A stretch of 61,630 nt of DNA, counting the filler, from Dugesia japonica (Eukaryota), in the NCBI GenBank assembly GCA_001938525.1. It is 5 parts of 5 records of this genome, joined end to end, with 100 filler letters (N's around TTAATTAATTAA, not from the genome) between each part and the next. Parts side by side here need not be neighbours in the genome. Positions count along the whole stretch, not along the records: positions 11,485 to 21,299 come from MQRL01529196.1; 4 more parts are not named here. One strand, 5' to 3'. This document shows positions 11,385 to 55,753 of this stretch, in pieces. The position numbers and the translations under genes were made by a program. How positions within the stretch are numbered: the first letter of the stretch is position 1; the number at the start of each line of letters is the position of its first letter. Below the pieces are notes generated by a model. That model was given only the letters and a program-made list of their open reading frames with translations. It did no database searches and was not told the origin of the DNA.

Positions 11385-11484
11385 NNNNNNNNNNNNNNNN
11401 NNNNNNNNNNNNNNNNNNNNNNNNNNNNTTAATTAATTAANNNNNNNNNNNNNNNNNNNNNNNNNNNNNNNNNNNNNNNNNNNN
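11385..11484. other. Artificial 100-bp scaffold spacer
   Basis: 44 N + TTAATTAATTAA (stops in all six frames) + 44 N. Confidence 0.95.
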
Positions 11485-12600
11485 AACGTATTCTCCGACT
11501 CTCTAACAACTTAATTACCATAGTAGTTCCAGGTTTCAGACCATATTCATAAATATGGCCATTTACATCATTAATGCTAACTACTGGTGTACAAACAATA
11601 TATTCGCCTATGGGTTTTGCCGATTCAACCTCCTCCAATGCATTGAGTAAATCTTTTACAGTTTTCCTTTCAGTTTTAACACTATTGGAATGTTCCACTT
11701 TGTCGCCACTGGTACTTTCTTCAAAACCTGATCCATCTTGATGTATGCGGTTTAATCTTCATCCGGTCTCCATGCTTCCATTGCTTTGATTTTATAATCC
11801 CCTACGGTTGTGTTTTCTAGCAACTCTTTTCCATATTCCAGAATTAATGGTCTCCACTTTTGACCCGTCATTGTGTCCATATGACCTGGTTCGGCTAACT
11901 TAACTAAATGATTCATTATTTTCCAATAACCCTTCCTGAGTAATTCATCCTTTAATGATTTAGCATCCTTTATGACTGTTTCTACATAGTCATACACTCT
12001 TGTTTTGTATTTAATCGGTGCTTTCAATCGCGCTGGATCGCTTTTGGTTATCATACTGATTTGTTTGTCAGGTCATTGGCTGTTTGATCTCCTTTACCAC
12101 ATCTGCCAGAAATNCTTGCTGCAATTTGCTTATTCCTTTGGTTGTAGTTGTTGACTCCGTCCGTACTAACAACATTTATTTGTGATATTTCTTTTCAAAT
12201 GATTTTACTATTTGCTCGGTCGTTCTGAAATCAAAATAATATTACAATGGTCGCTTAATGCGATGCATTTCTACTAAATCTATTAACTTTATTGTAGTTT
12301 TACCTGGCCAGACTCCATATTTCGAGATATGTGTTTTAGCATCATCTTATTCTATCACTCTAGTTCGAGAACACAAAACATACTCTCCGATAGGCTTTGG
12401 CCATGCCAGTTCATTCACTGCTTGTAATAATCCACTCACAGTAGTATCTTTCAATACAATTTTCCTAAGTATCTCTTGATATTTCAATTCAGTTGAATCT
12501 TCATCTATGGCTGGCTCGTAAGCATTAATACTATAATCATCGGGTTTTGTATGACTACGAATTTCCGATTAAACTTCTTGCGCCTGCGGGAACCACACTT
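11485..12600 (-). pseudogene. Decayed ORF downstream of gag with two copies of a ~65-aa ubiquitin-like-looking domain
   Basis: DTTVSGLLQAVNELAWPKPIGEYVLCSRTRVIE*DDAKTHISKYGVWPGKTTIKL (about 12460-12250) aligns with KTVKDLLNALEEVESAKPIGEYIVCTPVVSINDVNGHIYEYGLKPGTTMVIKL (about 11670-11490). Confidence 0.55.
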
Positions 12601-12889
12601 CGCTGGTGTACCTATCTAACTCCCATGACTCCATTAACTTCAACACATGCTTCATCATTGCCGAATATGCTTCTCGATAGACTACTGCCTTGAATGTTTG
12701 AATCATTGTAATTTTATCCTCCACCTGTCTAGTTATCGCTGCTCCTTTTGCTGTTAATTTTGCTGATAGTTCTACCTACATTGGCTGAGCTCTCATCATA
12801 TTTATTCGTCCTTGATTATTCTCTAGTTTTTGCATTCTCTCTCTCACCACTTGTTGTTCCTCCAATTGTAATTGCAAATATTCCTGTTC

Positions 12890-13960
12890 TTATTTCAACT
12901 TGTCAAACACTCGCTGCTCTGTTTTATATTGCCTTCGCCTATCTTGTTGCATAAGATTCACTTGTTGTTGATTTTGGTTTCGATTATTTTTTATATGGTT
13001 CCTTAATTTATCATTTTCGTCCATCATTTTCCCAATGGCCTGGTTGTTTCTCAATTTATTATTGTAGTTTGTATTGGAATTCCCATAGCCCGATCTTCGA
13101 TTATTCTGGAAACAATTCCTACTCGTGTGACTCGATTTATTGCATGTATAAAATTCTGGTGACTTTGTGATGAAGCAATTTCCCGCTTTATGCCCTGGTT
13201 TTTGATAATTTGTAAATATCATTGCCGATCTGCAATCTCTGGCATAATGACCGAGTTTACCCCAGTTATAACATGTACTTCCCTGGGTTTGCTGCCACGA
13301 TCCTTGTCTATTTCCTCCATTTCATCTTTTACTATTATTTGATTGTCACGGTGGCGGTCTATTCTGACCTGGTGACAGTCCTCTTAATAATGGTTGAGTT
13401 CTGGCAGGCATAAAATCCGCAATTTTCGGTTCGCTTTTCTCTTCCTCTATTTGCTCTTTAATTTTAAAAACACTGGCTTGCTTTTGATTCATTTTCACTT
13501 AATGGGCTACCATCGCCGCGTTTATACTACATAGATCTACCCATTTTTTCACTTCTGCATTTCTAAGTCCTTTAATAAAAATACCGAGCACTGTTGGATC
13601 ATCCAACTTATCTTTCATCGCCAATTTGCCGAGTTTACGTAATTCTACCTGAAAGGTTTCATCACTTAATTGTCTTCGATCAACAAACTCTTGAACCTCT
13701 TGTCCTTGCAACATTAATGGCTTAAAGTTTTCTAATAATAATTCCTTAGCTTTTTCTCATGTATCAACGGGTTCTTTACTACAACTAATTTTATCCCAAT
13801 AAATAGTTTTAGCTGAATCCTTCAAATATAGAGGTAATCGATCTGCTGCTCTCTCTACTCCATTGACACGCTTGTATATGTATCCCATAGGCTGCAATAA
13901 AATCATTTAATTTCTCAGGTTGTCTGTTAAAATAATCTCCATTAAACTCTGTTTTCCATT
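12890..13960 (-). mobile_element. Ty3/gypsy-type gag (capsid + three zinc knuckles), degenerate
   Basis: RLPLYLKDSAK..W, RRQLSDETFQVELRKL...FIKGLR, then CYNWGKLGHYARDC, (F)TNYQKPGHKAGNC and (F)YTCNKSSHTSRNC knuckles. Confidence 0.8.
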
Positions 13961-16900
13961 CCTAACTCCGTTTCGATTTAGATCCACTTGTACTCTTGTC
14001 ATCATCTGAAATTTTAGAATTCTCCTCGGTTTCCTTTTCTTTATGATTGTTTATTTGATTGGTTCGTAGATTGATTGGACTATCTCGAATTTTGGAATAT
14101 TGGAATATTTATTGTTTTGGTTTAAATAATATGGCCCTACGGCTTCTGCACGCATTCAAATATTATTATCGCATTCATTAATTGACTACTTTTATCTGCT
14201 TTTATTAACCGATTGATACCTCTAATTACCAATTACTCACTACAATACATTATCATACTTTATTTCTATTACCTTAGAGCATTTAATAGAGCATTTATTA
14301 ATAGAGCATTTAAGTACTTTACTTTTATTACTCATTCATTTATTATACATAAGCAGCAATTTTATTTGATTATGTCACTTGGATTATCTGTTAAAATAAT
14401 ACTATCAATAAATACTGGTCTGCAAATATTTCATTATCGCTCATCATTGATTCCAACTAGAAATCGTGTCATTTAACAGCTTAAAATACTCCNNNNNNNN
14501 NNNNNNNNNNNNNNNNNNNNNNNNNNNNNNNNNNNNNNNNNCACCCAACTCTATTAATTCTGATTCAGTAACTGATTGCTCCTTTACTTCTTAATACATT
14601 TTATTCACTGCTCATAGAACATTTCTGCCTGCTCCTAGCACACTTTCTTCAATGAAAGCTCTCTAATTTACTGAAAACCTCTTATATCTCACCATATAAT
14701 TTGATTAACTCATTAACTTTACTTTTACTCAAAATTTCACATTGGGATATTTCCGCCTGATCCTTGCAATTTGTTATCCGTACCAATTTCTCAATTAATC
14801 GATACTAAATTTATCTCCCTTTCATTTTCCATAATAGAACAATCCAGCCTGTTTCTGGCAATTTACCTTCCGAATAAGCTTTTATAACTATTTGACGATC
14901 AATTTATTTCGACTCCATAACCCACGTTGGGACAATCCCACCTGCCCCTGTTAGTTTATCCTTTTAGTTTAATCATTTATCAATTACTTTATTTTAATCA
15001 AACCTTTATTTTGAAACAATTCCGCCTGTTCCTGGCAGTTTATACCTTTAATAAACTTTTCACAACTAATCAATGATTCCATTATCTCAATTTTACCTTG
15101 TCCATGTATAGAACCATTCAATCATTTTGACACCAGTCATCTTCTTTTCGATTCGTTTTCATTTGCTAATAATTTTGACTATACCTTTCTTTTCACCACT
15201 TCACATTAGTACCTCTAAATTATCAACAATAGAACTCTTGCGCCGGTTCCTTGGTACTTTCCTTCTGAAATTTTGTAAGTTCAAAGCTCTCCTCCCATAA
15301 TAAGTATCAATAAAATTCTCCTCAACTAATTCATTTTAACTATACGCTCGAACAGTTCTCATTACTTCTCCAAATTTACTATACACTCGGATAGTTTTAT
15401 TATTTCTCCCCATTCAACTATACACTTGTATAGTTTCCTCTTTTCCGACCAGATCTTCCTTAGTTTCCTTTACGGTGGCCAACCGAAAAAGTATCCGGAA
15501 CCAATTACTCGAAAATAACTCGGCACTCCAATATTTCTTAAAAATATTTCATTTAATTCTGTTATCATTTTACTCCCAATTAATTTCAACTTTCCATACT
15601 AGTTTATTTGCTTTAAACACTCTCTCTATGCAGCCGGTAATCTATTTTTTCAGCTCCAGCTGGGCGACAATTGTGATCCTCAATTAACAATAGTGCCTTA
15701 ATATCTCAATGCTTGAGTCAGTTGACAGTCTATTTCGATTCAGCTCCAACCGCTCGCTAATGTGCAGAATTTCATTATCCAGCTGATGTGTACCCACGAC
15801 GCTTCCCGCGATCGTGTTACTAAATGAATTTCCGATAATAAACAACACTACTAATGCCACACTTGGGGCTAACTATTGTACCATCTTGTCAACACTGAGT
15901 CCTCTGATTGCAAGATACCATGGACAACTTGCGGCCTTGTACTACCAGGATTTTTCACCCTCAAAACTAAAGTTCTGTAGAACTACGGGTAGTTAGCTGA
16001 AGGGAGTGAGTGTCAAGGCGCACTCACGCCAACCGTACGCCATAAGTGGTAAACTTAATAGATGTGATGGTCGTTGCTGGCTCCTACGTTGATTCCCCTG
16101 GAATTCCTGAGTTTATCTCTCCTGGTTTAAACTCCATTCTCCCGACGTGGAAGTCAGACAAAGTATCCAACTTCAGAGATCGGTACTCCTTATTCGAAGC
16201 GTCGAAGCTCGAAGTCCGTCCCAGCATATCCCCGAAAGATCTTCCACTCCACTGATCATTGCAGCTGTCCCTTTAAAGTTGATCAGGCTTCTAGTTCAAG
16301 CTTACTAATCGCGGGCCCTATTTTCCAAAATGACATCCATTATTACGACATCTTTTCCTCGGGTGCTTTCACATATCTATGGTTACGTTCGAAATTGTCT
16401 CTCTTCAAATCACCACAATAAAATCTCCAACCAAATTTAATTCTAAACTCAAAATTAATTATCTCATATGAAATCCTCAATTTAATCACAGCTACTATCA
16501 ATTCACTCTCGAACATTTAATTCCAATAATATTCGAACTACTCGATTATTGTTTTAAATGACTCTGTAACCATAGAACCCCACTGTTACACCTCGTCTCT
16601 ATCCCCGTTCATTTGTCGATCAAATTCTCGGTTACCACTCACCTTGGTGGCCTCCCTGTTTTGACTGTCCGATACCCTTCCTGCACTTCTTGATAANNNN
16701 NNNNNNNNNNNNNNNNNNNNNNNNNNNNNNNNNNNNNNNNNNNNNNNNNNNNNNNNNNNNNNNNNNNTCTATAAATTTATTAATTTCTTGTCAATATCCT
16801 TTCATTATCAATTAATCTTGTTGCTTTCAGTTACTTCTACTCCACTGCTTGCATAATATCATTATCTTAGAATATATCTCGTCAATTTCATCTTCATCAT

Positions 16901-18314
16901 TTCAATTATCATTAATATTCGTTAATCATTTCCATCTAAATTATTATTGTGCATCTCATTCCATCTTCTTAAAACTATCTCAATCAGTCTGCTTCATTAT
17001 TATCCTACGATAAGATTCGTCTCGATCTATTAATTTAATCTCATCACGAATTATTTCACAACCTGACTGGAGGCTTTGATCTCAATGATTAGAAAATTGT
17101 ATTTTGGCATTCTACAATTATTTCATAATAATTTATTTTCACCTATTTCACTTAATATTTGATTAATCTGCTGTTCGTCTATCTTTGATTTATCGTTATC
17201 CGTACCAATTCTCTTTTCATCTCATTTGTAATCCACAAACCATACTGTTACTTTTTATTCAATCATTAGTTGTTTCGTAGAAGTTTCACTTTCGTTGCAT
17301 TTACTATACTACTACTGATTATTGATTTACTCACTCGGTTCATTCGCTTCTCGTTAAGTTTCTCTGCTACTAAATGCATATTAACATTTAATATTTAACT
17401 CACCATTAATATAATTTAAAAAGCTGCTCCTTTAGAAGTATAAACGTCAAATTTCTATTGATTCACATGCAGTTTCTACTATTATGGGTTTCGTAGACAA
17501 CTACCATGCGCATCAATCTAATTTTTCCCGCTTTTAACTACAATCAATGCTGATCAACCAATATATATTCTATGCCCAGCTGCAACAGTTTGGCTTTTAA
17601 TGTCTAACCCAAACTGCCCGCACTGATCATTATTTATTTATTGATTCTGTCCATAAGTGATGCTCAAATTGAGGCACTCCGAATGAGAAGAGTTGAGAAA
17701 TCCTCTTTCTAATCTCGCCACTCTGCGCATTCAAAATCATTCCATCATTATCTCATCATTATTTATTCATTTAATACTAAACCGTCAATTCGTTATTTAT
17801 TTACTCGCTTGACGTCTTGTACCACATAATCCAGACATGCAGTGCGTGTGAGTCCTGTATTCTTTCTTTCACCCACTTCATATCTAAATCACTTGATATA
17901 TTTATCTTTTTGTACATTTACTTATCAATTAATTATTCGATGTTTATTCTAGGTTGATCCCAATACCCAGTGTGTGCAAGTTCTCATGACCCACTTTCAC
18001 CCACAAGGCATTTAAACCACTCTCGCATTGCATTTGTTATCTCTTGTAAATTTAAATTGATCGACATTTACTACAAGATTTTTTCTCTATCACATGATAG
18101 ATAGCCCAGCATTTCTAGTAACAGCATAACCTAGTAACCACAGGAATTTGTGATGTCGTCTTCTCCATCACGATCCCCCATTCCCGAGTTCAGCGAGACT
18201 ATGCGGTATCTCGTCTTTGACAGAAAGTTCTGATTTAAACTGGCTCTTAATTTGTTCGAAATCAAAGTGCAAGAAAACAACTCTGAACTCAATTAGTATT
18301 TATTCAATCGCTGT

Positions 18315-18714
18315 TCATGAAGAACCGAAAATGGTTTCTTCTGTGATTGTTTTTCCTTGGTCGTTGACGCTCTGAGTATGATACTCTCTCCATAGAATTC
18401 GGACATTTTCTAGCACTGTGGATTCTCGATCGGCGTAATCCTTAATAATCTCCGCCATCATCCGATTATTAGCTATGATTATGAGTTNATCCTTAATAAT
18501 CTCCGCCATCATCCGATTATTAGCTATGAGTATGAGTTCCGTTCTTCTACTCACACTCAATCTTTCGTTCAATGTGGACAACTTCTTCCTAGTTTCGCCT
18601 GCCAACTCTTGCAATTCACGATTCTCTCTCCTTAATCTCTTGATCTCTGTCTGAGTATTCTGCTATTTGATCAATAACTCTTCTCTGGTAGGTTTTGTGA
18701 TCCGGGTTGACATA
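18315..18714 (-). pseudogene. Short coiled-coil ORF remnant upstream of gag
   Basis: Charged heptad-like sequence (QTEIKRLRRENRELQELAGETRKKLSTLNERL), intronless, frameshifted. Confidence 0.4.
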
Positions 18715-18998
18715 TCTAAATAACTCATGAAAATTGGTATGTTAATTTAATTTGCAAATATGTGCCATGAATATTATATTTTATTGTTGAGTGATTGCTT
18801 CGATATAAACTGCTTTATTTAGTGGATTCTTTAATTTCATCATATTTTGGTTTACTTTGACCGGTTTGTTTTAAACATTTTATTTGCGTCGTTTATCGTT
18901 TAATTAATTCTTCTATTTTAAATAATTTACAGTTTATGTAACTCCACATAAAGTGCTAACAACGACATTTTCAAAATATATTAAATTATACACATTAT

Positions 18999-19476
18999 CA
19001 CACTTCCGATTCTAGTACCTCCTCCGTCTCCAGCCTCTCTAAATGAGCTGTCAGCACAGGCATTGCATGTTCTATTTGTTGCCAGATTCGTCTACCGGCC
19101 TGATTATGAATGAGGAGATTGTTCTTCAGCACCGTCTGACGGTCCGTGATGGTTCGAGCTCGTCTTAAATGATCCGAGGCACGAGACTACAAATCTGCTA
19201 GTGCGGTTTTCTGTTGTTGTCTATCCTTCTCCTGGTCATTGCGCTGCTCTTGCAACTGCTTTACATGAGCTTGCAGCCTCAGTATCTCCTCCTTTTGTTC
19301 CTGGATTTCAATGCCTCTTATTCGTATTTTATCCTCAGTCACACACCAGGGGTCTCGATCTGTCCTGCTTCACCCCATGAATCATATAGAACTGGAATCT
19401 CATTACATTTTCCGGAAATAAACGACCATCCATTCAGCGATTTCTGGGCCTCTGCTATATTTATCCTTCTCGACAT
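18999..19476 (-). pseudogene. Second coiled-coil ORF remnant upstream of gag
   Basis: MSRRINIAEAQKSL... then EIQEQKEEILRLQAHVKQLQEQRNDQEKDRQQQKTALADL*...LERLETEEVLESEV*, with stop and frameshift. Confidence 0.4.
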
Positions 19477-21299
19477 CTAAACAATTCATCTTTAAATAAT
19501 GATAGGTTACATGAAATCGTTAATCCCTTTACTCTATAATCGGTCTCTCCTTTCATTATTATTACTTCAGCGAGAAAGGAGTTAGAATTCCTCGGTGAAA
19601 ACTAAGTATTTTATTGTTCTCAGGGAATTCTACTTTCTCATTCGCTATGCGGCTATTATTATTAGGCTAGATTTTAAGTTGCGGCATTCAGTTTAAATCA
19701 TTATTTAAAATCTCGATCTAAATCAATTATAATTTTGTTAATCATCAGTATATTATAGGATGAGTTCCTTATCACAATTTAATCAGAAACCATTTAATTA
19801 AAATATATCATAATACCAAAATAATTATTCCAAATATCAATAAAATAAATAATAATTAAAATCATAATTTAAATATTTTATCAAACCGAAACTAATTAAT
19901 TATTACAAATATCTATAATTTAACAATAAAGAAATGGTAACCAAATAACAGTATCCCGAAATATTAACTGAATTCATTGAAAATATAATTAGTAATTATT
20001 CCAAAAATTATATTCGACTTCATTCATTAAAACAAAAATCTCTTATATATCAGAATTGTTACCCAGAACGTTATGTCCAAAAAATTCCTTTTCGATAGGA
20101 AACACAACTCCTCTTGTGGTTAATTACCTTTTATCGTTTCAATCAAAACATTTTATCTCATTCAATCAGGAAAAGTTTAAACATTATTTACGATTATAAA
20201 AATTATCTTTTTAAATTATTAATAATCAATTATTAACGAAAACATCATTATTGAAATATAGCATTATAATTATTAGAATTCTAAATAATAATAAAACATT
20301 TTAAAAGTCAAATGAAATATATTAAAGGCCATTGTCAAATAAAAATAAGTATTATACAACCATAAAATTAAAATATTAAAACATAATTTACGCTTCTCCA
20401 CAGGGCTCCGAACCATCACGAGTAAATATTAACTTCTTAAATATTCATATGCATTTAAACATTCATTTACATATCCGTTTCTATTCATTATCCACATCCA
20501 TCATTCATCTATTCATCTCTTTTCATTTTAAATTATTAATCTATTTTCATTATTGAACATTCATTTCTTTTCATAAATTATTCATCTATTCTCATTATTG
20601 ANNNNNNNNNNNNNNNNNNNNNNNNNNNNNNNNNNNNNNNNNNNNNNNNNNNNNNNNNNNNNNNNNNNCTCGGATCAGCAGCATATACTTTGTCTCATTA
20701 CTTTTAGTTTGAATTGCCTTTGATAATTCTGAAATTCGATTTGTTGGATATCCTGTTAGCTGATATTTTCAAAAGAAAAAACTCTTAATTGATGTGATGA
20801 TTTTTGAAACACTAATTTTCCACTTAATTCAACTTTTAATCAATTTATTCAATCTCAAAATCTCTAAAATTTATCAAAAGTATTATTTTGTTGTGTTGTT
20901 TTCGCAAAAGTGTTTTTTTTGTGTTGTTTTCTCATTTGGTTATATATCATTTCAAAACCAGGTGGGCCTCGTTGCTCACTGCGAAGTAGATGTCAAATGG
21001 GGCGAATCGGCCCCACTGTCGAAAAATCGGTGGTTTTTTCCAGGTTCGAAAAATCGACTTTTTGGGGTTTTCAGTTAATTTGGGCAAACAGTAGCTTTTA
21101 ACTAATTAATCAATGAAATTTAGTTATTTAATTAAAATATTGATTAAATTTACCAAAACCTGGAAAAAACCCCAGATTTTTAAATAAATGAAAAATTAGA
21201 GAAATAAATCAAAAAATTAGAGAATTAAATCAAAAAATAAATTTCTTAATAAAATAAAATTTCCAAATAAATAAAATTTCCAAAATAAAATAAAGTTTC

Positions 21300-21399
21300 N
21301 NNNNNNNNNNNNNNNNNNNNNNNNNNNNNNNNNNNNNNNNNNNTTAATTAATTAANNNNNNNNNNNNNNNNNNNNNNNNNNNNNNNNNNNNNNNNNNNN
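21300..21399. other. Artificial 100-bp scaffold spacer
   Basis: 44 N + TTAATTAATTAA + 44 N. Confidence 0.95.
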
Positions 21400-26889: not shown

Positions 26890-27760
26890 ACATCCGACGC
26901 TTTAGATATTTTTCAAGTTTTTCCACGTTTCGTGTTTATTTTATGTCCATCGTGATCTTTTAACTTATACCATCTGTTATGGATCTGTTATACCACCTCA
27001 TATGGTTCTTTGTATTGGTCTTGTCCTTTGTCTCGTGTCTACGTTTCTACTAAAACCTCCTTGCCTACCTAAACTGTCTCTTTATCTTTGTCTNCTGGGC
27101 CGTACTCGTTCCTCCTTTACTCCTCTATCATTTCTGCTAATCTTTCGACCAAACATGATTTCTGCTGGACTCCTGTGCGTCGTTTTATGTTTGGTTACAT
27201 TCAGTGCAAATTCAATTTCTGTGAGTAATGTAGCTCAATCTGTTGTCCTCCTCTCTCGCATTGCAGCATTCATAAAATCTCTTACTGTACGAAACTGGCG
27301 TTCAATATATCCGTTCGCCACACGATGTTAGTCCTTCCTACGAAGTTTTTCATTTCTCGTGCTTCAAATACTCCGCCGCAATCTGATTGAATTTCTACAG
27401 GACATCTGAACCTAAGGATCCATTGCTTCCAAATGTTCTCTTGAATTGTTGACTCATCTTGTCTGCTAGTGTGTTGGTTAATTATACCCACTTTATATCT
27501 CTTATTTTTTTGTTACTTTTAACGGCTCACAGATGTATACGAACATTACTTTGAACAGATCAAACTTTTCTGACCAACACGTGACTTCTTTCGCGCCCGT
27601 AGTGCCGACTTTTACTCTTTGGCACCACATACATGTCCGTACTAAGTTCTTCGTTTTTGCCCAATTGGTCTCCCGCGCATCTAGTGTATATGTAGTCCTC
27701 AATCGAAAATTTGTGTCGAAAAATCTATCTCATCGATCAATAAATACACAAATCTAAAAT
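26890..27760 (-). mobile_element. Gypsy integrase remnant
   Basis: LVRTCMWCQRVK, WILRFRCPVEIQSDCGGVF, ANGYIERQFRTVRD, EFALNVTKHKTTHRSPAEIMFGRKI, (G)PY-like EPYEVV. Confidence 0.8.
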
Positions 27761-28055: not shown

Positions 28056-28521
28056 GTTGGTTGGCTGGATACTCTGGCCAGAGATTATAAAGAACCATAT
28101 AACGAAAACAACACCGAATCTTTGTCTCTCGGTGGACCAAAGATTGAATCCAAATATATAACATCTCTTTATTTCGTTTTCACGGCCATAACTAGTATTG
28201 GATTTGGAAATGTAGCTCCAAATACGAATGCAGAAAAAGTATTTTGTATTTTTGCTATGCTGGCTGGATGTAGGTTTTTGTTAGAAAGTGATGATAATAA
28301 TGTCATGATTTTATAATTTAGCCATGATGAGTGCTGCGATATTCGGTAATGTTTCCTCAATTGTATTGAGGCTGTACCAAGGCAGCGAAGAGTGCCATGA
28401 AAGGCGAAGCAGCATCAAAGAATTTATTAAGTTTCATCGAATACCAAAACATTTAGCAAAACGTCTTCAAGATTCTTTTCAAACAAATTGGGACTACACA
28501 AATGGACTTAATATGAATATG
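28056..28521 (+). CDS. ERG-subfamily (KCNH2/seizure-like) voltage-gated K+ channel, two internal exons (28056-28269, 28322-28521): S5-P linker, pore, S6, C-linker
   Basis: VGWLDTLA...GGPKIESKYITSLYFVFTAITSIGFGNVAPNTNAEKVFCIFAMLAG|S MMSAAIFGNVSSIVLRLYQG...IKEFIKFHRIPKHLAKRLQDSFQTNWDYTNGLNMN. GFGN selectivity filter; 52-nt GT-AG intron joins the exons in frame. Confidence 0.92.
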
Positions 28522-29148
28522 GTAAAATTTTTTTTGGTAATCCAAATTAAAACGCATTATAAAAATAAGTATATAATAAGTTAAATTCTTAATCGTAGCG
28601 ACTGGAAGTAATTCCAATTTCAAATCAAAGTGTATATTTAAGAATAATTTTTTAATTTTTTTAATTAAAAAACCAATCAAATTAAAAATTTCCGAACGTT
28701 TTGAATTACCATCTGTTTAATTACTTGGTGCTTTTAAGCTCGCGTCAGTGGAGACTTCTCTTCTCAATTTGGGTAAATTGAAGAATCCTACTCTACTTTC
28801 CATGTTGAGAGGCAATATCAGGTTTTGGAGACTACCTTGTACCCTGTACACTGCAATGAAATAGCTAAGTCATAAATGAAGATTCGTCTGATATGACTAA
28901 CANNTCGTGCCCAATTTTTGATTTGCTTCTCTTTTTATTTATTTTGAAGTTTTTAGCTAATAATCTAGGAGGGAATTTTCTGACTCAAAAGAGCTTGTGT
29001 TTTTCTCGATGTATTAATACGCGTAGTACAAAATCAATGGAACAAATACGTACATGAATGCACTCAAATACACATACAAATGCACATTAGTAAAAACATT
29101 CTATAATTAATTTGGTATTTTAATTGAAATATTTCAACAAATAATCAA

Positions 29149-30168: not shown

Positions 30169-30268
30169 NNNNNNNNNNNNNNNNNNNNNNNNNNNNNNNN
30201 NNNNNNNNNNNNTTAATTAATTAANNNNNNNNNNNNNNNNNNNNNNNNNNNNNNNNNNNNNNNNNNNN
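30169..30268. other. Artificial 100-bp scaffold spacer
   Basis: 44 N + TTAATTAATTAA + 44 N. Confidence 0.95.
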
Positions 30269-30559: not shown

Positions 30560-32510
30560 TCCAACCAAAATATTTTTTTTGAATTTCCCGCCAAAAAAAA
30601 TTTTTTTTTTGAAATTCCCGCGAAAAATATTTTTTTTGAATTTCCCGTTAAAAAAAAATTCTTAAAAAAAAGGTAAAAAAAAAAGGTAAAAAAAAAGATT
30701 AAAAAAATAAAAAAAAAATTTGATCCGATCAAAATTTTTTTGATCCTAAAAATCTGATCCGATCAAAAATTTGATCCAAAAAATCTGATATGATAAAAAA
30801 AAAATTTGATCCCAAAAATCTGATAAAAAAAATCCGATCAAAAAAAAAATTTGATCCCAAAAATCATACCACCAAAAATCATAACCTCATCGTTATGTGT
30901 TTTCGAGCCCTCTACCGGGGGGGCGTTCCGCCCAGCGCTGTGCATGTGATGACAATGCGGCACTATCCCCCTACTTCTATATTTGAATTATCCAAGGAAG
31001 GACTAATCACAAAATTACCAGTAATCATCGGAGATGGAAACAACTATCAAAGTAGTTACAGAATATTGCTGTTGGGCTATGGGATCATCCACAGCATGGC
31101 ACAAAATGAAATTGGTAAAAAAAACTTAAAATAAAGGATCAAATCGAATGGATAAAAGGATTGAAAGGAAAAGTGTCGAAGTAAAATTGATAGGAGTAAA
31201 TCAAATGGATAAAAGAATCGAAATGAAAGAGTCGAAATGAATGACAGAATTATTCTAGTGAAGTGACGAATTGTAGAATCATTGAGGATGAAGCTGAGAT
31301 CAAATATTGAGACAATTCGCAGAAGTGTTAAAATAAAGTTACGAGTGAATAAAAAGTGATGGTCGAGGATCCATTCTATTTATGCCTTCTGAAATTTTTT
31401 TAATATGGATATAACCTTGTCCTTATTAAAGTATACTCTCAGAATACTGAAAAGAGGATAAATAAAAGTAGGTAGATAGTGGCTCATATCTCCTCTTGGT
31501 TTAATCTCTAAAAAGGCCCCCTCCCCCCACCCTTTTTAAAAAGGGGATAAATTTTTTAAAAGCAATTAATAAAGGGGATAAAATTTTAAAAAGGGGATAA
31601 AATTTTTTAAAAAAATTAAAAAAAGGGATAAAATTTTTAAAAGAAATTTAAAAAGGGGATAAATTTAAAAAATAAACTAAAAGTGGGAATTAATTAAATA
31701 AATTTAAAGTGTGAATAAATTTTTAAAAATAAATTAAAAATGGTGTTTAATTTTTCCTCTGTGTTTAGTTAGGAATTTATTCGGTGAGGTGGAATTAGGT
31801 CAATTTTTGACTGGTTTAGGTGAAAGTGGTCAAATTTTTCCTCAGTTTTGGTCAGTTTGGGTAATTTTTGGAAGATTTGGTCAAGTATTTAATCGGGAAT
31901 GGTAACTTGGTTAATNTTTAGTCAATATTGGTCAAATATTTCTTCGGGATTACTTGGTTTGGGTAATTGGTTGAATTTTTCCTCGGGATTGGTAATTTTT
32001 GGGTGATTAAAGTGAAATTGGTCAAATATATCCTCGGGAATGATTAATTTGAGTTATTTTCAGATTATTTAGGTGAAATTGGTTGAAAATTTTCTCGGTG
32101 AGGTAGAATATGGTCAATATTTGAATGGTTTAGAGTAATTTTTAAGTGATCTGGTCAAATAATTCCTCGGGATTGCTCAGATTGGGTAATTTTTGGGTGA
32201 CTTTGTCTAATTTTTCCTGAACATTGGTCAGTTGGGTTAATCTTTGGACAATCTTAGTCAATTATTTACTCACATTGTACAGTTTTGGATGATTTGATCG
32301 AATATTTCATCTAGATTGATCATTTTGGGTAATTTTTGTGTGGTTTTAGTGAAATTGGTTGAAAATTTCTCGGTGAGGTTGAACCTGGTCAAACTTGGTT
32401 TGTTTTAGGTTAATTTGGTCAAATATATCTTCGGAAATGATTAATTTGGGTAATTTTTGTGTGATTTGGTTAATTATTTCATCGGGAATGGACAGTTTGG
32501 GTTGAATTTT
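30560..32510. repeat. Complex array of successive degenerate short repeats
   Basis: TTTGAA(T/A)TTCCCG x3, TTTGATCC/GATCCGATC, AAAGGGGATAAA x5 (31538-31665), and a TTGGTCAA..CTCGGGA / TTGGGTAATTTTT array (31780-32510). Confidence 0.75.
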
Positions 32511-32822
32511 AAGGAAATTCATTATAAAAGTCGAATTTGTTTAAATTTTAAAGTTTTTTAAGAATTTTTATCAGATTGTTTTGTAGAAATCCGAGCAAAC
32601 CGTTCATGTTGTTTAAATAATATGAAAATTTAAAATTTTTTTAATGAAATCTTTATGTGAATCTGGGTGAACAGTCTAAAATTTTGAAAAAAATGTTCTT
32701 TATCTCAGATTCCAAAGATTTGTATACCAAACTGTTGAGAACTTTACGGCGATCATTTCTAAGAAATAAAAATTTTTCGATAAACCTTTCCTTTTCAAAT
32801 AAGTTAAGAAAGTATCAATTAG

Positions 32823-33340
32823 ATAGAGAAATTTCGAGACCAATTTTTTTATATTCCATTCTCGAAAGGTTGTGGCACATTTATTTGCAATTGGTATTTA
32901 ATTGTGAAAATTCTCTTTACTTTCAATCCGATTATCAATTTGTACATACTCAAGTGGCTTTTCGGTCAAAAGTCTGATGGAGTGTTAAATTTTTATAAAA
33001 CGCTTTTTCTCTTGGTATGGAATTCAGAAGATTTTTATTACACCAAATATTTCCCTATAATGACTGTGTGCAAAGTCAATCTTATAGTTTTGGGACAAAT
33101 ATCCAACAATTATTTAACGTTTTGTATTCATCCAGAAAATCTGTTCAACAGATACTTTGTTACTATAATAGCTATTTGGTTGATGTTTCTCACTAATGTC
33201 ACATTTATCGGATTGTTAACGTTTCTTAACAATTTACTTTTCTTCAAGGTTAGAAGGTCTCTTATAAAAAGAATTTTACGGCATAAGAAAATTAATTTTT
33301 CTGAAGTAAATAATGGATATTTAGTCTTCATTATCACGGA
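32823..33340 (+). CDS. Innexin fragment (TM3, extracellular loop 2, TM4), intronless here; the frame continues to 33656 into unrelated sequence
   Basis: SKGCGTFICNWYLIVKILF..NLYILKWLFG (TM3), YFPIMTVCKV..LGQ....TFCIHPENLFNRYFVTIIAIWL (FPxxTxC...C.LP.N..NEK...W motif), R..LIKRIL..NNGYLV. Confidence 0.8.
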
Positions 33341-36231
33341 TGATCCTCAAGAGATATTGGAGAAATCCGCAGCAATAGTTGTTACAATGGAACAATCAAG
33401 GGGTACAGACCCAGAGATAAATCAACAAGAATCAGAGATTCTTGATAGCTGTAAAATCATAGTTGAATTCAGAAAAGATGTTCAAACCACGCTAAATGAG
33501 CAATTAGAGAAGTTAGCTAGCGTTGAATTAGCTGACAAAGACATAGATAGCATAGTGCAAATTCTATCTACAATCAAGCACGAAACATTTATTTTAAGGC
33601 AATTTCAGAAATTTGTCGTAAAATATGCAAAACAATGCAACATGATTAGTATTTGAGAAATGCCCAACTAGTTATACATATGCCAAAGGGGGCATATGTA
33701 ATAACTGAAATAAATGTGCGAGAAACAGTAGCTAAGTTGACGTCTCACTTAAAAAGAATGAAGCGTAAAAAATTTGAACGAGACATAAGATAGAGAAAAA
33801 ATGATTCTGTTATGCGGCATATTGCGAAATGTGAAAACAGAATTGCAGGCTAAAGAGAAGGTGGGTGAGGTAGCCACTATTAGCCAAGATAATGTATTTG
33901 CTATAAAATATATGGAATTAGACCAGCTCCAAGAGGCTCAGACTATTCCACGGCGATTGGAAAAGAGATCCAATCGAATATAAGAAACAATGAAAATATT
34001 AAAAATATTTTGAGTTGGAAATTGTCATTAAATATTTCAACGGATACATGAAAGGAAATAGTACCATTATTACTACCTCTGGCTGGTACGCCAAGTAGTT
34101 ATCAAAATGAAATCTGTATGCTAATACGGAAAAAAGATCTAGCATTTAGGCAAGACCCAAAAGGACAAAGTGAACTTTTTGTACCAAATCACCTAATTCA
34201 TAATCTATCTTGAAATTACTGTCTTCTTAATGTTTTTGCGTATCTGATAAATATTCATCAATCATGCATCCTTCTTGATTTTTCTCTTTTTTATGATTCA
34301 TTTGGCCNAGGAATATATTTTGCGCCTTTTAGTAATATTCATGGCAAAACATTATATGTAGCATTCTTTAAGTGATTGCATATGTGTTTACCGCTGCCAC
34401 AATATCACTCACAAAAAATTGCAAAAATAGATAGTATTATTTATACAATGTACAAAACGAAACACTACGTGTTATACTTCTCAAACTTTAAATAAATGAA
34501 TATTTCCTTAGGACTTGGAATACAGTGAATTGCTAATGAATTCCTTTTTAACAAAAACTAAAACATAAACCAGGATTTTTTCATTTTCGGCTTTGAATAT
34601 TTGACTTTCTTCGTTGATTCATAAGAAAAACGTTCTTAAAAACTGACTTAACATTAAACTAGTAATACAGAGGATTGTTTAGTCGATATAAAAATTTATC
34701 GTGTACACTCATTACAATAAATATAAAACAAAATATCTATGAAAAGTATTGATAACTATTAGCTTGGTTTGTGCAATATTTTAATAAAAAGAACTAGAAA
34801 AATGTCGTTAAAAAATATGACAATCTAATTAAGGTGATAAGGAGTAAACTTCCGTTTCTGATGAATATTTGTTTAAAGATGTCAGGAAAGACATCTATCT
34901 CTTTTTATGTAAGAGTTTGGATTATAGAGGTCTAAAACCAAAGAAACAAAGTTAATAAGATTATATAAAAACAGAATTAATGAAATCAAAAGAAAGCAGA
35001 ATTTATGAGATCGAATGAAAAGAAAAAAAAATAATGTTCAAATAATAGTCATGAAAATTGAACTACTTTGGTAAAGATATTAGAGAGCATGACTGAACAA
35101 GTTTTTTAATGTTATAAAAATACAAGTCTTTACTAATTTGACAATGAAAGCGAAAACTAATCACATATATAATGAATAATTGCGATTAAATGGCAGAATT
35201 GACAACAATTACTCATGAGTTCAGAAAGTAAAGATAAAATAATTTATTGGTGAGATCTAAAAGCCGTAAGGAAAGAACTTACTCGGGCGACTAAGAAGCA
35301 AAGCTAAAGTAATGTGTCGATAAGACCTAAAGAGAAGTTGAATAGAAGTACCAATCAAATAAAATGAAAGCAGATATATTTTAATCATAGAAATAAATAT
35401 TTCAATACAACATAAATCAGGTGAAAACAATTGGAAAACAATCGAAAGTGGAACGGGAATTTTATCACTATGAGTTGACCTTCTAAGTTTTGATTTATAA
35501 ATTTTGAACTTTTTAAAAATTTTATTTTTGAATTGAGATTAATTCCACTTTGTCTTCGTCAAGAATTAACTTTTTATAATTAATTTGGATAAATATTTAT
35601 ATTTTTTTTAATATGTGACCTATTTGTATGGCTAGCCCAAAATTCATTATTTTCAGTTTTTTAATTTCTCAAATAGAGATTTAAAGCTTCTATATCAGCA
35701 GATTCTGAGAATAAAATAAGAGCGTATATTTCAACATTTAAATAACTTTAATCACGATATATACATTTTAATTGGATTTCATAAGCTATTTAATATTTCT
35801 AAACTCACACAATTGTTGATTTGCCTTTGCGAAATCCCAAAGACAACTCAACATTAATGTTCAAAATATTAATTAAAATTTTTTATTAAATTATACAATA
35901 AAGTGTTGAAATTCTTTAAAACATAATTTGTTTCAGAATTTCAGTTGGTGATTTAAAATAAGGCAAAATGTGATAAAAATTATATTTATAAATAAAAAAT
36001 GTTTAGCTTATTGTAATTTCATACAAGACTTAAATTACTTTTATGTTTTCTTTAAATTTTGAAATCTAAAGTATTTAATAAAATATTCTGCTAAGAATTA
36101 ATTTTCCAATACTTTTCATTTTCTATTCAAATTATTTGTAATAGTTTAAATATTTTATCAAAATTTGTCTCAAATTTAGTAATTAAATTGATTTAAATTT
36201 GTTAAAATATTGATTTATATTAGCATTAATT

Positions 36232-39200: not shown

Positions 39201-42200
39201 GTGTATACCATGGATAAAACACAGCCGATGCTCAACCTTCATAAATTTAAAATTAATTATAATCCCGAAAATCCTGGGATTCTACGTTTCTAATAATAGT
39301 AATAATACAGTAGAACCTCACACAACGGGACCCACCGGGACCGAAACTGAGTGATGTTAAAGAAAGGTATGACGTTATAGAGAGGTTCAACTGTAATAAT
39401 TATAACAAAAACAAATAAGTATTGTCTATAATATTCAAAATCATATTTAATGGAAATAAAACTAACTCATTGTTGATGGTGGATTATTTTGATCTGTATA
39501 AAAAATGTGACAGAAAAACGAAAAAGAAATAATTTTATATAATAACAATAATAAAAATAAGTATATATAACAATATAAAAAAATCTTAATATTAATATCA
39601 TAATTATCATTAATAATAATAATAATATTGGGCTTCAAGGCTTCATTTAACTCTTCTTCCATCTTAATACAACATTTACTCTTCGTGCATTTCTTCCTCA
39701 TTGCAAGAAATTCTAGGGTAGATACTCCGCAGCCGGCATAAAGTTGACAATGTCTCGAAATTAATAATAATTAATAAATGTCTCGTTATTATCTACCTCA
39801 GGTCCATGCGGGTCTTTGTACTAACCCGTCTTTAGAAGTAAATCGTCTTGTTGCTAGTTGCTCAATTTCGTCTGGTAGAGAACAATGTAACTCCAATTTT
39901 ACAATATAAATTTATTTTATAACAACACCTACTAATCTTCTTCGGCATTCTGCAGTAAAATCGGATTATATTACATAAGGTTTATTAATGCTTTAAAATA
40001 ATTTTTTATCATTAAAACAATTAAAGTTATTCTAAAAAACTTAATTTGTTTGCGGAAAACAAGACAGATAAATCACGAGATGAACGAGAACCCTATTAAC
40101 ATTCATTCATAACTGGAGTTCTAATTTCAATTGAGATATTACTAAATTGTTCTATGGTTTATTAATCACTAATGTATAAATTTATCATTGCATTATTGCT
40201 ACTAAAATTATAGTTTAAATAACTGTTACTTCTAAGTTAATATACAAAATAACGAATAACTCCAAAAAGTATGGGTCATACTATAAAATAAAATGATTAA
40301 TTATGAAAAAATTAAAACTCCAATTTTTAAATAGTCATATTATTTGTTTTTAATAAAAAAATCCTTTTTAAGAATTTATTCATTAAATATATCAAAAATA
40401 TCAGATTCATCTTCGAAAGAAACAATATCAATAGAGTCATTTAAAACCATTGCACCTGAAAACTTATTTTTAAAATGCCTCCCAAAAAAATCATGTCTAG
40501 AAATATGCCAATTATCATAATTTGGCTAAAATCCTGCACCATTAAAATAGTTCACGATATTTCCAAATTCCAATTAATCCCATGGTTTTTTGACTCACGA
40601 ATTAATTGTAATATAAGATGGTATAGGGTTTCCAAAATTGAAAAAATTGTGATGAAACGCAATTAAGAGAGCCTGATCATCTTGTTGTTTTTTAAAAAAT
40701 CTGTTATTAATACGTGACTGCACGATTCTTTCGTTGTCATTATCAGATTGCTTTGATAGAAAATCTGCAACTATCCTTTTTTCATCCTTAATGCACTGTC
40801 ATTACATATAATGTTGACTGAGAAATTCAGTCAACACCCATTGTCTTTCCAATAGGTTTTTCACATGAGTTGAGCTGACCGAAAGTTTGTGGTTGATGTG
40901 AGCGATGAAATTTGTCACTAATAAGTAATACTTTGATTGAAAGTACTAATACACCTAGTTCTCTATCGGCGGTGGAATATTTTTATTGAGTGTGTATTAA
41001 TTTTTACTAGAAAGGAATGCAATACGATGCAGCTTAATTCTTCATTCTCTTCGTTCAAACTTCTTCCAATACCCGACCCTGGCGCATTAGTGCATAACAT
41101 AAATGTGCGATATGATTAAATAAATTTTGTGTTCTATGTCATCTTTGAAGTGGATCAAGATGTCATTAATATAAGCATAAGCAACAACTTGAAAACTGTT
41201 TAAACACTTATCTATATGTCTTAAAAATGGCTGTGATGAATTCTTCAACCCAAATGACAGTTTTCTGTATTCAAATAGTCCAAAAAGTACGATTATTGCT
41301 GTTCTGTGCCTGTATGATTCTTGGATTGGTATTTGATTGTAGGCTTTCCTTAGATCCAGTGTGAAGAAAATAACTCATCCATTGCTTTTGTTTAGTATAC
41401 CACTCATTCTAGCAAGTTGATATATGTCTGGCTTAGTTATTCGGTTCAACATTTAGTAATCATAACATAGTGATTGACATTTTCGCCAATTCTTTTTGTG
41501 GAAATAGCATATCCTTTTGTTTGATGATTTCTTATCTATTATTTATCCTTCTTTGGCTTTGATTGGGTTGATTTCATCATGTATGCTGCTGACTAATTTT
41601 TCCATGTTGGTTTCCCAATCGTCTAATTTCCACAATTTGATCGTCTATTTCGATGTGATACTCAGCTAATTGTGTTTTTTAATCAAGGTTTAAGTCTATA
41701 TTCTGGGGCTTAATTATGTCTCATGTACTTTTGTAGGGATTTCAAGAACTTCAATTTAAGGATGTTGGAATTCTGGACTTCTGTGTGGTTCTATGATTTA
41801 AAAACTGTTTCATTTCCGTAAGTTGTTTATATGGAATCTTGTAAGAATTATTTTTGGGATGCATCCGCTTATTCATGGCTTCTATTATTGATATTGTGAT
41901 TCTGCATAATATTTCAGCTTGAAATTTTTCATATGGGGCTTCTTCCTGTGGATCTATTTCATGTGACACCAAGTACAATATAACTGATGGCAGATCGATA
42001 AATAAATAAGATATTTCGTTTTTAAATTGCAAATATTTGATAGCTCAAAAACTACACCCACTTAGGCAAACCAATTTACTGCGTTTGAAAAGTCGTTTGG
42101 CATTTGATCTGGATGGAAATTCTGATTTAGCCATATTAACAACTTTTTGAATTGGTAATTTTTATTTTGTCTACACTATTTTATTTGTTTATTAGTATAA

Positions 42201-46084: not shown

Positions 46085-48645
46085 GGCGAAATCAGAATTT
46101 CCAGTTAACAATAATGATGTCAGAAGTGGCGAAGAAAACCACAACCAAATCTAAATGTCAAATTACTCAAACTCAACAAATTGGTTTGCCCAAGTAGATG
46201 CAGCTTTTGAGCTATCAAATAACCGAAGTTCAAGGAAAAAATAATTCCACTGTCTTACCAGTCTGCCACCAGCTATATTGAAATTAGTGTCACATGAAAT
46301 GAATCCTCAAGTTGAAGACCCATACGCAAAATTGAAAGCTGCAATACTAAGCAGAACCACAATGTAAGCCATGAATAAATTAATGAATCCCAGTACTGAT
46401 TCTTACAAGACTCCATCAAGAAAGCTGTCAGCAACATATGTGATGAGATCAACGCAATCAAATGAAACAATTTTACAAAATTATTGAGTCTCATCGAAAT
46501 CCAGAAACTTCCAATATTTTGAGACTGAAGTTCTGGAATTTCTACCAAAATACATGTGACATCATTTAGTTCAGCACAGAGACAAAAGCCTTGAAGAATT
46601 AGCTCAGTTAGTAGAATATCATTTTGAAATGGATGATCAAAATGTCGAAATTACTGACATCAGGCAATTGGAAAATCAGCATGACGAAATCACAATCAGA
46701 AACATACGTGATGAGATTAACGCAATCAAAGCCAAACAAAAACACATTAAAGATAAGATATAAAGAAAGATATATGTTACTTCCAAAGATAACTTGGCAA
46801 AAATTCAAGAAAATGCCAATCTCAATTCGGAAAAAGGCAATGAATCTCACTGAAATCAACCACTGAAATCCGCGACGAACCCAAACAGTCGGTAGAAGTA
46901 CAATTTATTTTCACAGTCTCAGGTTGGTCAAACAATAATCAAAATATATTTCTAATTGAATCAGATGCAGATATCAGCATCCTACCATATCAAATGTTTA
47001 TCCAAAATAACAACAATGTTAAACATTCATTTTTAAAAGCAAATGAAAAAAACATAGTTTATGGTGAAAAGATAATTTTACTTCACATACTAAGTATTCA
47101 GCCACATTTTAATGGACGTTTACAGTAGCAATTAAAATGTTGAATTAAATATTGAAATCAGATGTTTTGTCAAAACATTGTCTTTTAATAGATTATCGTA
47201 GCAATCAGATCTTTCAAGGACGACAGCAAAGTAATGAAATTTTAAACCCAGAATGCGCAACGGTGCTGCGAATAGACACCGATGGTATACCAGTTCATCA
47301 ACGTGCTCAAAGATTGGGACCATTAATTATGAAGAAAATCAAACTTGAATTTAAAAAATTAATTAAACAAGACATCGTCCCACCAAGCAGTAGTGAATGG
47401 GCATATTAAATGGTATGTATCAGGAAGAAATATGGAACATTTTGACAATGCGGCAATAACCGAATGTTGAACTCAATAACTAAGCCAGATAAATAACCAC
47501 TTCCTAGAATGAGTGACATCCTAGACAGAATCAATGGATGTAATATTTTCTCCACAATGTATCTGAGAAAATCCTACCGTCAAATTTCAATCCAAGAATC
47601 AGACAGGCACAGAACAGCAATAATTACACCATTTGGCATATTTGAATACAGAAAGATGCCATTTGGATTGAAAAATTCATCACAAAAATTTAAAAGACAC
47701 ATGGACACTTGCCTTAGCAGTTATCAAGCCTTTGCTTCTGTTTATGTTGATGACATTTATATCTACTCTAAATATGACAAAGAACACATAATTTATTTAA
47801 AAGAAATCATGTTGGAACTTGAAAAACACGGATTGATCATCAACTCAAATAAATGTCAGCTCAATAAAAATGAAGTAAAATTTCTAGGATTCTCGATATC
47901 CAAGAAAGATATCAAACCTATCAATGAACGAATAAAAGCTATCAAACGTTTAACAACACCAAGGAATGCAAAAGCCCTACAGAGAATCTTAGGCACTATG
48001 ACATTCTATCAATGAATGATTCCAAAAATGTCATAGACACTTGCTCCAATTCATGAACTTACAACACCACGTAATAAGAAGAAATATTTTAAATGTTCAT
48101 GACTATACGACAAGGCATCTCAAGAAGCAATACAAAACTATCTGAAGTGACTGAAATGGCAACTGCTGGTCAATAAAAGACATTTATATTATGCACTGAA
48201 GCGTCACCAGATTGCTAATGCTAAGATTAATTTCAGATCAATATTTTTGGCTAAAAATGAGAGCTCAAATCCGAAATTGGTGTGAACACTGTCTTAAATG
48301 TCACGCAAATAAAGTTTCAAGTCACACGAAGGCACCGATTGATACATTACCAAACTTAGGAAAATTTTAAATAGTACAATTAGATATAGTAGGACTTCTA
48401 CCAACTATCAAACGTAAAAAATATTTGCTTACCATGATTGATAAAGAAACCTCATGGACTGAAGTGGCTCAGCTAAGAGAAATCACTACGTCAAGCATAG
48501 TTGCAGCGATAATAAAAGACTGGATACGGCGTTTTAAAGCACCAGAAATCGTGATAACAGACAACGGACAACAATTTGTTTCAAGAGAGCTCAACACATT
48601 CTGTGATACATTTGAAATTGAGCATATGCGTACTACACCAGTAGG
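46085..48645 (+). mobile_element. Ty3/gypsy retrotransposon remnant (gag-PR-RT-partial RH-IN)
   Basis: WFAQVDAAFEL gag, FLIESDADISILP (protease DSGA-like), PSSSEWA, TAIITPFGIFEYRKMPFGLKNSSQ, VYVDDI, NSNKCQL..VKFLGF, WCEHCLKC, WIRRFKAPEIVITDNGQQF. Many stops. Confidence 0.92.
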
Positions 48646-48679
48646 TAGATAGTGGTGCATGGACAAAATTTGAGTGCAC

Positions 48680-51831: not shown

Positions 51832-51931
51832 NNNNNNNNNNNNNNNNNNNNNNNNNNNNNNNNNNNNNNNNNNNNTTAATTAATTAANNNNNNNNNNNNN
51901 NNNNNNNNNNNNNNNNNNNNNNNNNNNNNNN
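51832..51931. other. Artificial 100-bp scaffold spacer
   Basis: 44 N + TTAATTAATTAA + 44 N. Confidence 0.95.
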
Positions 51932-54920: not shown

Positions 54921-55753
54921 TTAAACAATAGGAGTTTCTCCAAGATATCCACAATTTCTAAATGGATTGATATTTGTTGAAGTGAGCTGACCAGTTGGTG
55001 GATTATCATAACAATGATTCAACTGATTTTCATAGTAACTTCCATTGGGTGGAGGAGGAAAAAAATCTTTTGGATTATTGGGAGGATAATAATTGTGCTG
55101 ATTATTACATACAATTCCACATCGTTGTTCTTGAACATGCTGATCTTCAGCACATATGTCATAAGTAGCATCTTCATCGGTGTAATTTGATTGAGAAAAG
55201 TACGATGGAGTCATTTGTATGAAATTTTTTGATGGTATTGATGAAGAATTCTGCCAACCTTTCAGTGAATTCGAATGATCTGATGTATTACAATCGTTGC
55301 TATGATCATCTTCTTCCTCTTCTTCTTCCTCAATCTCTGATTTGTCAGCTTCTTCATCTTCTTCCAATAAACTAGTTGAATCATCATTTTGCCCTGATCT
55401 AGTTATCGATTCATATTTATTGAAATCCCGTGTGGAATTTCCCGATAATCTTAAATTAAATTGAGATTGGTATGTTTTTTAAACTACTTACATTGCGCTG
55501 CTACTGGAACCATTGCCATTCGATATGTGACTGGAAACCATTGACGACAAATCAAGTGGATATCCATTGAGTCCCAGTTGAGTTGCACTGTTAGCTCCAT
55601 TGGAACCAGGTAAATACGGATCATCAGATAAATGTGTCATTGATAACATGTCATGAGGTGGAGGGAGTGCAAAACTGGATGCAATGGAAATAGTATCAGA
55701 ATGATGAGTCATATTCATCATATTAAAGGGTACACATGAATAATCGATATATC
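54921..55753 (-). CDS. Last two exons (55753-55492; 55449-54921) of a gene with S/P/N-rich and acidic low-complexity C-terminus (transcription-factor-like)
   Basis: 42-nt GTAAGT...AG intron joins the exons in frame. Poly-E tract; no recognisable folded domain. Confidence 0.7.

Follow-up and report, generated by a model that had tools for sequence, protein, structure and literature searches.

Dugesiid planarians harbour giant gypsy-like LTR retroelements known as Burro, or GYPSM1 (PMC6431247). In the published description, ORF1 of these elements encodes retrotrans_gag, CCHC zinc knuckles (three in S. mediterranea, or two), Smc, an Ubi2/SUMO-like domain (PF11976), BCL2, env and PR, and the plan further includes BIR, dUTPase, RT, RH, IN and LTRs, for a total of more than 30 kb (PMC6431247). 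Burro1 has a single reported Ubi2/SUMO-like domain, placed between MATH and BCL-2, and the Burro-like ORF1 of D. tigrina is without MATH. Accessory ORFs lie upstream, and the copies found in D. japonica are decaying, with stops and frameshifts. Some of the accessory domains reported are related to apoptosis and ubiquitination, and a meddling of the elements with these host processes has been suggested (PMC6431247). Burro1 is transcribed upon loss of PIWI silencing (PMC8532177), and thus living relatives could be studied. The parts of PMC13238120, PMC10175614 and bioRxiv 10.64898/2025.12.11.693146 that were available add no domain information.

Ubiquitin-type domains inside polyproteins are also described for viruses. 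Ubl1 of coronavirus nsp3 is reported to bind N (PMC8769549, PMC9938351), and in cytopathic pestiviruses the ubiquitin C-terminal hydrolases cleave a ubiquitin that has been inserted ahead of NS3 (PMC8310069). The locus described here comes from Dugesia japonica, and was found in a window, that is, the whole stretch of DNA analysed, of 61,630 nucleotides. The reading that we favour, with moderate confidence, is that it is what remains of the 5' portion of a giant gypsy retroelement of the Burro-like kind, now dead, whose Gag polyprotein carries, in duplicate, a module formed by a helical domain and a ubiquitin-like (UBL) domain that lacks a C-terminal GG.

The preserved part of the element

Identical artificial spacers (N44-TTAATTAATTAA-N44) occur at four places, namely, 11385-11484, 21300-21399, 30169-30268 and 51832-51931. 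The window is therefore made of five separate scaffolds, and its features are not to be linked across spacers. The draft assembly of D. japonica has a scaffold N50 of 23 kb (PMC6114478), and planarian genomes are more than 70% A/T (PMC11410931). The GC content is 0.273 for the window as a whole, and 33.9% for the scaffold at 11485-21299, versus 24.7-27.3% for the other four. The duplicated module lies at the very end of this scaffold, and the sequence at positions lower than 11485 is not part of the element. The first-pass annotation had the sequence stop at a scaffold end, and the spacer pattern indeed puts the edge at 11485.

The preserved part of a decayed large gypsy-type LTR retroelement occupies 11485-19690 on the minus strand. 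Its 3' part is cut off at the scaffold end at 11485, and its 5' limit, which is approximate, is set by two change points of a composition scan, one near 19570, where the purine fraction of the minus strand is 0.61 vs 0.52, and one near 19690, where GC is 0.36 vs 0.24. The purine-rich strand bias and the GC level are unbroken through gag and both copies of the module, and the same bias and GC characterize a leader of about 5.6 kb upstream of gag, up to near 19570-19690. No LTR, primer-binding site, tRNA or Rfam family was found for the element.

Two broken ORFs lie inside the leader, both coiled-coil-like and on the minus strand, and both possible accessory ORFs. The one at 18990-19369 is stop-poor and gives sub-threshold coiled-coil Pfam matches (best E 0.068), and the one at 18130-18731 also gives sub-threshold Pfam matches (best E 0.014); Pfam assigned no family to the product of either. 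Within the latter ORF, a 51-nt two-copy repeat flanking a single N (18438-18538) is probably an assembly artefact. A GC-rich island (0.47) is also present within the leader, at 15700-16400, and its minus frames are without Pfam match. In this copy of the element the reading frame is disrupted three times, and nonsense codons number at least nine: it is dead, and does nothing as a protein.

A Gag frame that continues into the module

The gag-like region with zinc knuckles that had been reported upstream of the module was confirmed. A capsid-like domain at 13460-13855 (minus strand, as all features of this section) matches PF03732, Retrotrans_gag, with E 0.02 and 15.6 bits, which is below the curated cut-off of 24.1 and hence a weak match, but a full-length one (profile positions 4-96 of 97). 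Ahead of it, the stretch at 13866-13961, read by eye and without Pfam match, probably encodes the N terminus of Gag; a frameshift near 13870-13855 separates its frame from that of the remainder. Three CCHC zinc knuckles, partly decayed, follow at 13112-13273 (13273-13232, 13216-13175 and 13153-13112); two stretches pass with PF00098 (E 3.6e-8), the three knuckle-spaced motifs being recognized by their spacing, and the region matches retroviral nucleocapsids in the PDB (best E 0.001). From 13110 to 12725, translation and composition in the Gag frame point to an Asn/Gln-rich stretch and then to a predicted Q/E/R/K-rich coiled coil, where 49 of the 90 residues encoded by 13003-12734 are E, Q, K, R or L. 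This coiled-coil-like stretch gave no Pfam match to the Smc profile, and MATH was not matched by Pfam either in 12080-14098 or in the upstream frames.

Across the 535 codons of 13855-12251, the frame shared by Gag and the first copy of the module is interrupted by 8 stops, and the other two frames by 48 and 55, so that Gag and copy 1 were one protein; between them there is no intron-like interruption, only scattered stops. The proposed linkage of Gag with the repeats thus holds within this copy of the element. Since no frame stays open across the linker that joins the two copies, that the Gag ORF ran into copy 2 as well is something we infer; the distance from the probable Gag start to the scaffold end is 825 codons.

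It had also been claimed that the module stands where a protease would be expected, after the knuckles. The aspartic-protease motif D[ST]G[AS] is indeed absent from all minus frames of 11486-13100; however, the module does not follow the knuckles directly, as about 128 codons, corresponding to the Asn/Gln-rich and coiled-coil-like stretches, intervene.

An old duplication of about 160 residues

The minus strand encodes the module twice, at 12724-12251 (copy 1, 158 aa) and 11985-11486 (copy 2, about 167 codons); the copies are diverged but share KPIGEY and the other motifs listed in the first-pass annotation. The repeated unit had been described there as one of about 65 aa, its copies separated by a spacer ORF of about 100 aa. 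This ORF (11752-12072, 106 aa) is instead the front half of copy 2, with 33% identity over 91 aa to that of copy 1 (E 7e-11), and therefore the unit is about 160 aa long, consisting of a helical part of about 62 aa and a rear part of about 96 aa, and the true linker is 12250-11986.

In copy 1, the front half (12539-12724, about 62 aa), homologous to 11985-11800, is helical, at pLDDT 48-58, in the second of two AlphaFold models, and the rear half (12251-12538), which is in the Gag frame and homologous to that of copy 2, is a probable ubiquitin-like (beta-grasp) domain with an internal stop at 12349. The linker (11986-12250, about 88 codons) contains 4, 5 and 6 stops in its three frames, at least one frameshift, and one N at 12114. 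Copy 2 continues with a front half (11800-11985), assigned as helical by homology to copy 1, and a rear half (11486-11799), again a probable ubiquitin-like domain, which extends to the scaffold end; its frame is interrupted by a stop at 11752-11754 and shifts between 11713 and 11668, a stretch in which copy 2 exceeds copy 1 by about 40 nt.

BLASTP aligns the rear halves with 39% identity over 83 aa (E 3e-15), and the alignment score of 128 (z 24) is reached by none of 2000 shuffles. Identity by codon position, over 79 codons, is 0.56, 0.65 and 0.29, and only 10 of the 32 identical residues are encoded by the same codon. The picture is equivalent for the front halves, whose alignment over 91 aa has two gaps, and in which 70 codons align ungapped (z 15.3, 0 of 2000 shuffles; codon-position identities of 0.53, 0.59 and 0.31). 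Given that third codon positions have diverged, the duplication is old, was shaped by selection on the protein, and is no assembly repeat. With blastn, the module region matches only itself in the window, and local tblastn found no third copy of the module there.

Two candidate assignments of the front half were discarded. We no longer consider the former spacer as a candidate third ubiquitin-like domain, because it gives z ~0 against the rear halves and is homologous to the front of copy 1. In the ESM Atlas, the helical half encoded by 11800-11985 had a recognition of 1257, below the tool's own threshold, and retrieved phage NinB-like clusters only, at 0.83-0.86, a link that we treat as chance. 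Pfam, the ESM Atlas and the fold search provide no assignable family for the helical front half.

The fold of the rear half

The rear half is likely to adopt a beta-grasp, ubiquitin-like fold, as first suggested from its sequence pattern, and the lead in this direction comes from the ESM Atlas. The query was the rear half of copy 2 (11486-11725), whose first ~20 residues were in the wrong frame, and its recognition was 2562, above the line of 2300. Unnamed clusters account for 24 of the 30 matches (best 0.92), and the remaining six, at 0.89-0.90, fall in sets carrying PF11976 (Rad60-SLD) and/or PF00240 (ubiquitin): one set with PF11976 at 36% and PF00240 at 29% (0.90, 137 features), one with PF00240 at 82% (0.89), and one with PF11976 at 22% (0.89). 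These named rows share only 130-140 features with the query, where true members of one family usually share at least 170; the tool grades such rows as leads. Reading by eye and a crude hydrophobic-moment scan give an amphipathic order of strand-strand-helix-strands, over a length of about 85-95 aa. A tyrosine-glycine-x-x-proline-glycine stretch before the last strand resembles what we take to be ubiquitin-like patterns, and the rear half is presumably without a UBX signature.

Other results weigh against this fold. No ubiquitin-like match was obtained in Pfam (E up to 10), NCBIfam, PADLOC or PDB sequences. Structure prediction followed by Foldseek, which had been proposed as a check of the fold, gave AlphaFold models of the module that are unusable, with pLDDT of 40 and 39, built on alignments of two and three rows. 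The query of the first model held ~20 wrong-frame residues, and neither Foldseek nor VIA found a match for this model. In the second model (pLDDT 39) the rear half is helical or coil, and VIA matched residues 1-69 to generic helical hairpins (Z up to 7.1). Models of such low confidence, and the fold searches made with them, do not exclude a beta-grasp fold.

The absence of a C-terminal GG, stated in the first-pass annotation, was verified, as there is none in the coding frame of either copy. In what we take to be the register of the ubiquitin fold, both copies retain the place where GG should stand, but with other residues. Conjugation, or cleavage by deubiquitinases, is thus unlikely.

Search for relatives

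An alignment of the two repeats, searched against proteins of 150-2000 aa, retrieved none of 805 candidates at E 0.01, and a protein search with the Gag domain none of 264. The region 12122-12775 had one match among 1.84 billion representatives, which is an artefact: the protein consists of tandem repeats with a period of 92, and its score adds up from 11 weak stretches. Searches with tblastn gave no match in phages at E 1, and 9 and 5 records in plasmids at E 0.2-10 that we judged to be chance; the two plasmid records inspected by eye contain a histidine kinase-like ORF and a transposase-like ORF. As no relative of the module or of Gag was found, there is no link to Burro at the sequence level, nor a second copy of the element.

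How these blanks are to be read can be judged from a host gene in the same window. Exons of a KCNH potassium channel, of the Erg type by its named matches, are located at 28056-28581 (plus strand). The exon searched had 34 matches, of which 12 are named: ten of these, from eight molluscs, one annelid and one nemertean, have identities of 65-69%, and two Nematostella entries have 55%; no flatworm protein is among the 34, and none is close to identical. The KCNH exons, and an innexin elsewhere in the window, mark the host as an invertebrate animal, the named matches place it among spiralians, and an AT-rich spiralian with a fragmented assembly agrees, circumstantially, with a dugesiid planarian. 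Since the host's own KCNH protein is missing from these matches, the protein sets probably lack this lineage, and hence the blank searches for relatives say little about rarity.

Relation to Burro and alternative explanations

Compared through the published description of the 5' architecture, the element is probably Burro-like, and every one of its visible traits fits the Burro plan. As in the Burro of S. mediterranea, retrotrans_gag is followed by three CCHC knuckles, and the Gag frame leads into domains other than those of pol, with no protease at that place. A coiled-coil-like stretch, without match to the profile, is found here where Burro has Smc; PF11976, published for Burro ORF1, appears as an ESM lead at 0.89-0.90 for a domain that is negative in Pfam; and both have additional ORFs in an extended region upstream of gag, decay by stops and frameshifts, and a spiralian host whose DNA is rich in A/T. 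There are also differences, however. Unlike in Burro1, no MATH was found before the module, and the element is therefore not classed as Burro1 specifically; yet ORF1 of D. tigrina also lacks MATH, so that its absence does not set the element apart from Burro. The domain is doubled here, only about 128 codons behind the knuckles, and the tandem arrangement of helical and UBL parts is unlike the published Burro account. We found no description in the literature of such a tandem module in a Gag polyprotein, and PMC6431247 alone among the papers retrieved mentions a domain of this type, although a finer annotation of Burro may exist. The earlier remark that UBL domains in a Gag-linked polyprotein would be unusual was overstated, because a PF11976 domain in the Gag-led polyprotein of Burro has already been published (PMC6431247), with respect to which the tandem module looks like a modest extension.

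Outside of retroelements, integral ubiquitin-like domains (PF00240, PF11976) resemble the rear half in size, amphipathic order, a YGxxPG-type stretch and the lack of GG, and differ from it in that the latter has no profile match and a fixed helical partner in front. Ubl1 and Ubl2 of coronavirus nsp3, which are non-conjugated UBL binding surfaces in a viral polyprotein, serve as a working analogy only; they belong to an unrelated virus class and show no sequence similarity to the module in PDB searches. The pestivirus insertions likewise place a ubiquitin-type domain inside a polyprotein, but one that is near-authentic ubiquitin and is cut by host hydrolases, whereas the module is highly diverged and without GG.

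On the reading that we favour, ORF1 would have encoded the Gag capsid, three knuckles, an Asn-rich stretch, a coiled coil and the module twice, with protease and RT far downstream, past the end of the scaffold. The two GG-less domains would be integral interaction surfaces, rather than modifiers, and, on the Gag polyprotein or cut from it, could bind factors of the host ubiquitin/SUMO pathway as an adaptor or decoy, the tandem pair giving avidity or two specificities. Granted the fold, we see about an even chance that such a mechanism operated in the living element. The decoy role mooted in the first-pass annotation, extended to an adaptor, is plausible, and among the conceivable roles it would be the likeliest in view of the Burro domains that are reported to relate to ubiquitination and apoptosis; alternatively, the domains may have bound the element's own nucleocapsid, as nsp3 Ubl1 binds N.

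We consider it unlikely that the rear half has some other alpha/beta fold, specific to the element, and served the polyprotein structurally. Profile and structure tests that are all negative or unusable, together with the low numbers of features shared in the ESM Atlas, speak for this possibility, and the conserved KPIGEY is, to our knowledge, not a ubiquitin motif. All the named ESM matches, however, are in the ubiquitin and Rad60-SLD families, the crude scan returns the strand-strand-helix-strands order over some 85-95 aa, and a PF11976 domain is published in the matching kind of element (PMC6431247). Rather improbable, too, is the independent capture of a UBL module by a separate large gypsy family, at a position other than that in Burro1 and possibly in another spiralian host, where it might have served as an adaptor, such as one that binds the nucleocapsid of the element itself. 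The position of the module close behind knuckles and coiled coil with no MATH in front, and a tandem arrangement with a helical partner that is absent from the Burro account (PMC6431247), are in line with such a capture, as are the lack of relatives among 1.84 billion representatives other than one artefact and KCNH matches that include no flatworm, and binding of N by nsp3 Ubl1 provides a precedent (PMC8769549, PMC9938351). Yet the Burro-like ORF1 of D. tigrina has no MATH either, the other visible traits all fit Burro, and with protein sets that seem to lack the host's proteins, the blanks carry little weight. Put more broadly, a giant gypsy family with a Gag-fused di-UBL decoy or adaptor, directed at the host ubiquitin system or at its own nucleocapsid, and acquired independently of the Burro1 domain, would parallel, among retrotransposons, the Ubl domains that large RNA viruses have as integral parts, but we doubt that this is the case.

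Two further explanations concern whether the module belonged to the Gag protein, and what it did there. It is very improbable that a piece of a host gene, or a nested insertion, came to lie behind gag without ever being part of the protein: only one copy is available, linkage is seen at no second locus, and a frameshift disrupts the connection of copy 1 with copy 2, but copy 1 is in the Gag frame with scattered stops only, nothing intron-like interrupts it, and strand bias and GC are continuous through gag and both copies. The first-pass annotation had also offered a processing signal. Domains cut by host deubiquitinases would have a parallel in the pestivirus ubiquitin that hydrolases cut before NS3 (PMC8310069), and we find this scarcely credible for the module, whose copies are far from ubiquitin in sequence, have no Pfam match, and lack GG at the expected place in either coding frame. 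Ubiquitin C-terminal hydrolases need a GG end. What the preferred reading of a Burro-like Gag polyprotein entails, if the fold holds, is that selection maintained UBL domains in Gag polyproteins of giant gypsy elements, where they came to be duplicated along with a helical partner and to occupy different positions; they would then have had a genuine function, directed against host ubiquitin pathways or exerted through them. In that case, the module would offer a small, defined domain with which the suggested meddling of Burro with host ubiquitination and apoptosis (PMC6431247) can be tested. The general idea is already in print and the copy described here is a fossil, which makes the gain a moderate one.

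Other features of the window

Further traces of retroelements are present in the window. Related RT/integrase fragments at 41090-42088 (minus strand) and 46167-48649 (plus strand) are inverted with respect to each other, 73-79% alike, and located on one other scaffold, and an integrase core fragment (PF00665, E 0.002) is found at 27285-27512 (minus strand), just before the KCNH exons. The RT/integrase fragments lie on other scaffolds than the element, and are not attributable to it.

An intronless ORF for a divergent innexin (PF00876, E 7e-13) spans 32823-33656 on the plus strand. It lies behind degenerate tandem repeats (31500-32520) whose GC skew is strong, and ahead of coding-like sequence that is broken. 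The innexin ORF could be carried by a mobile element or be a processed copy. Finally, two adjacent in-frame low-complexity ORFs of 185 and 112 aa, without Pfam match, at 54921-55826 (minus strand), belong to a probable host gene.
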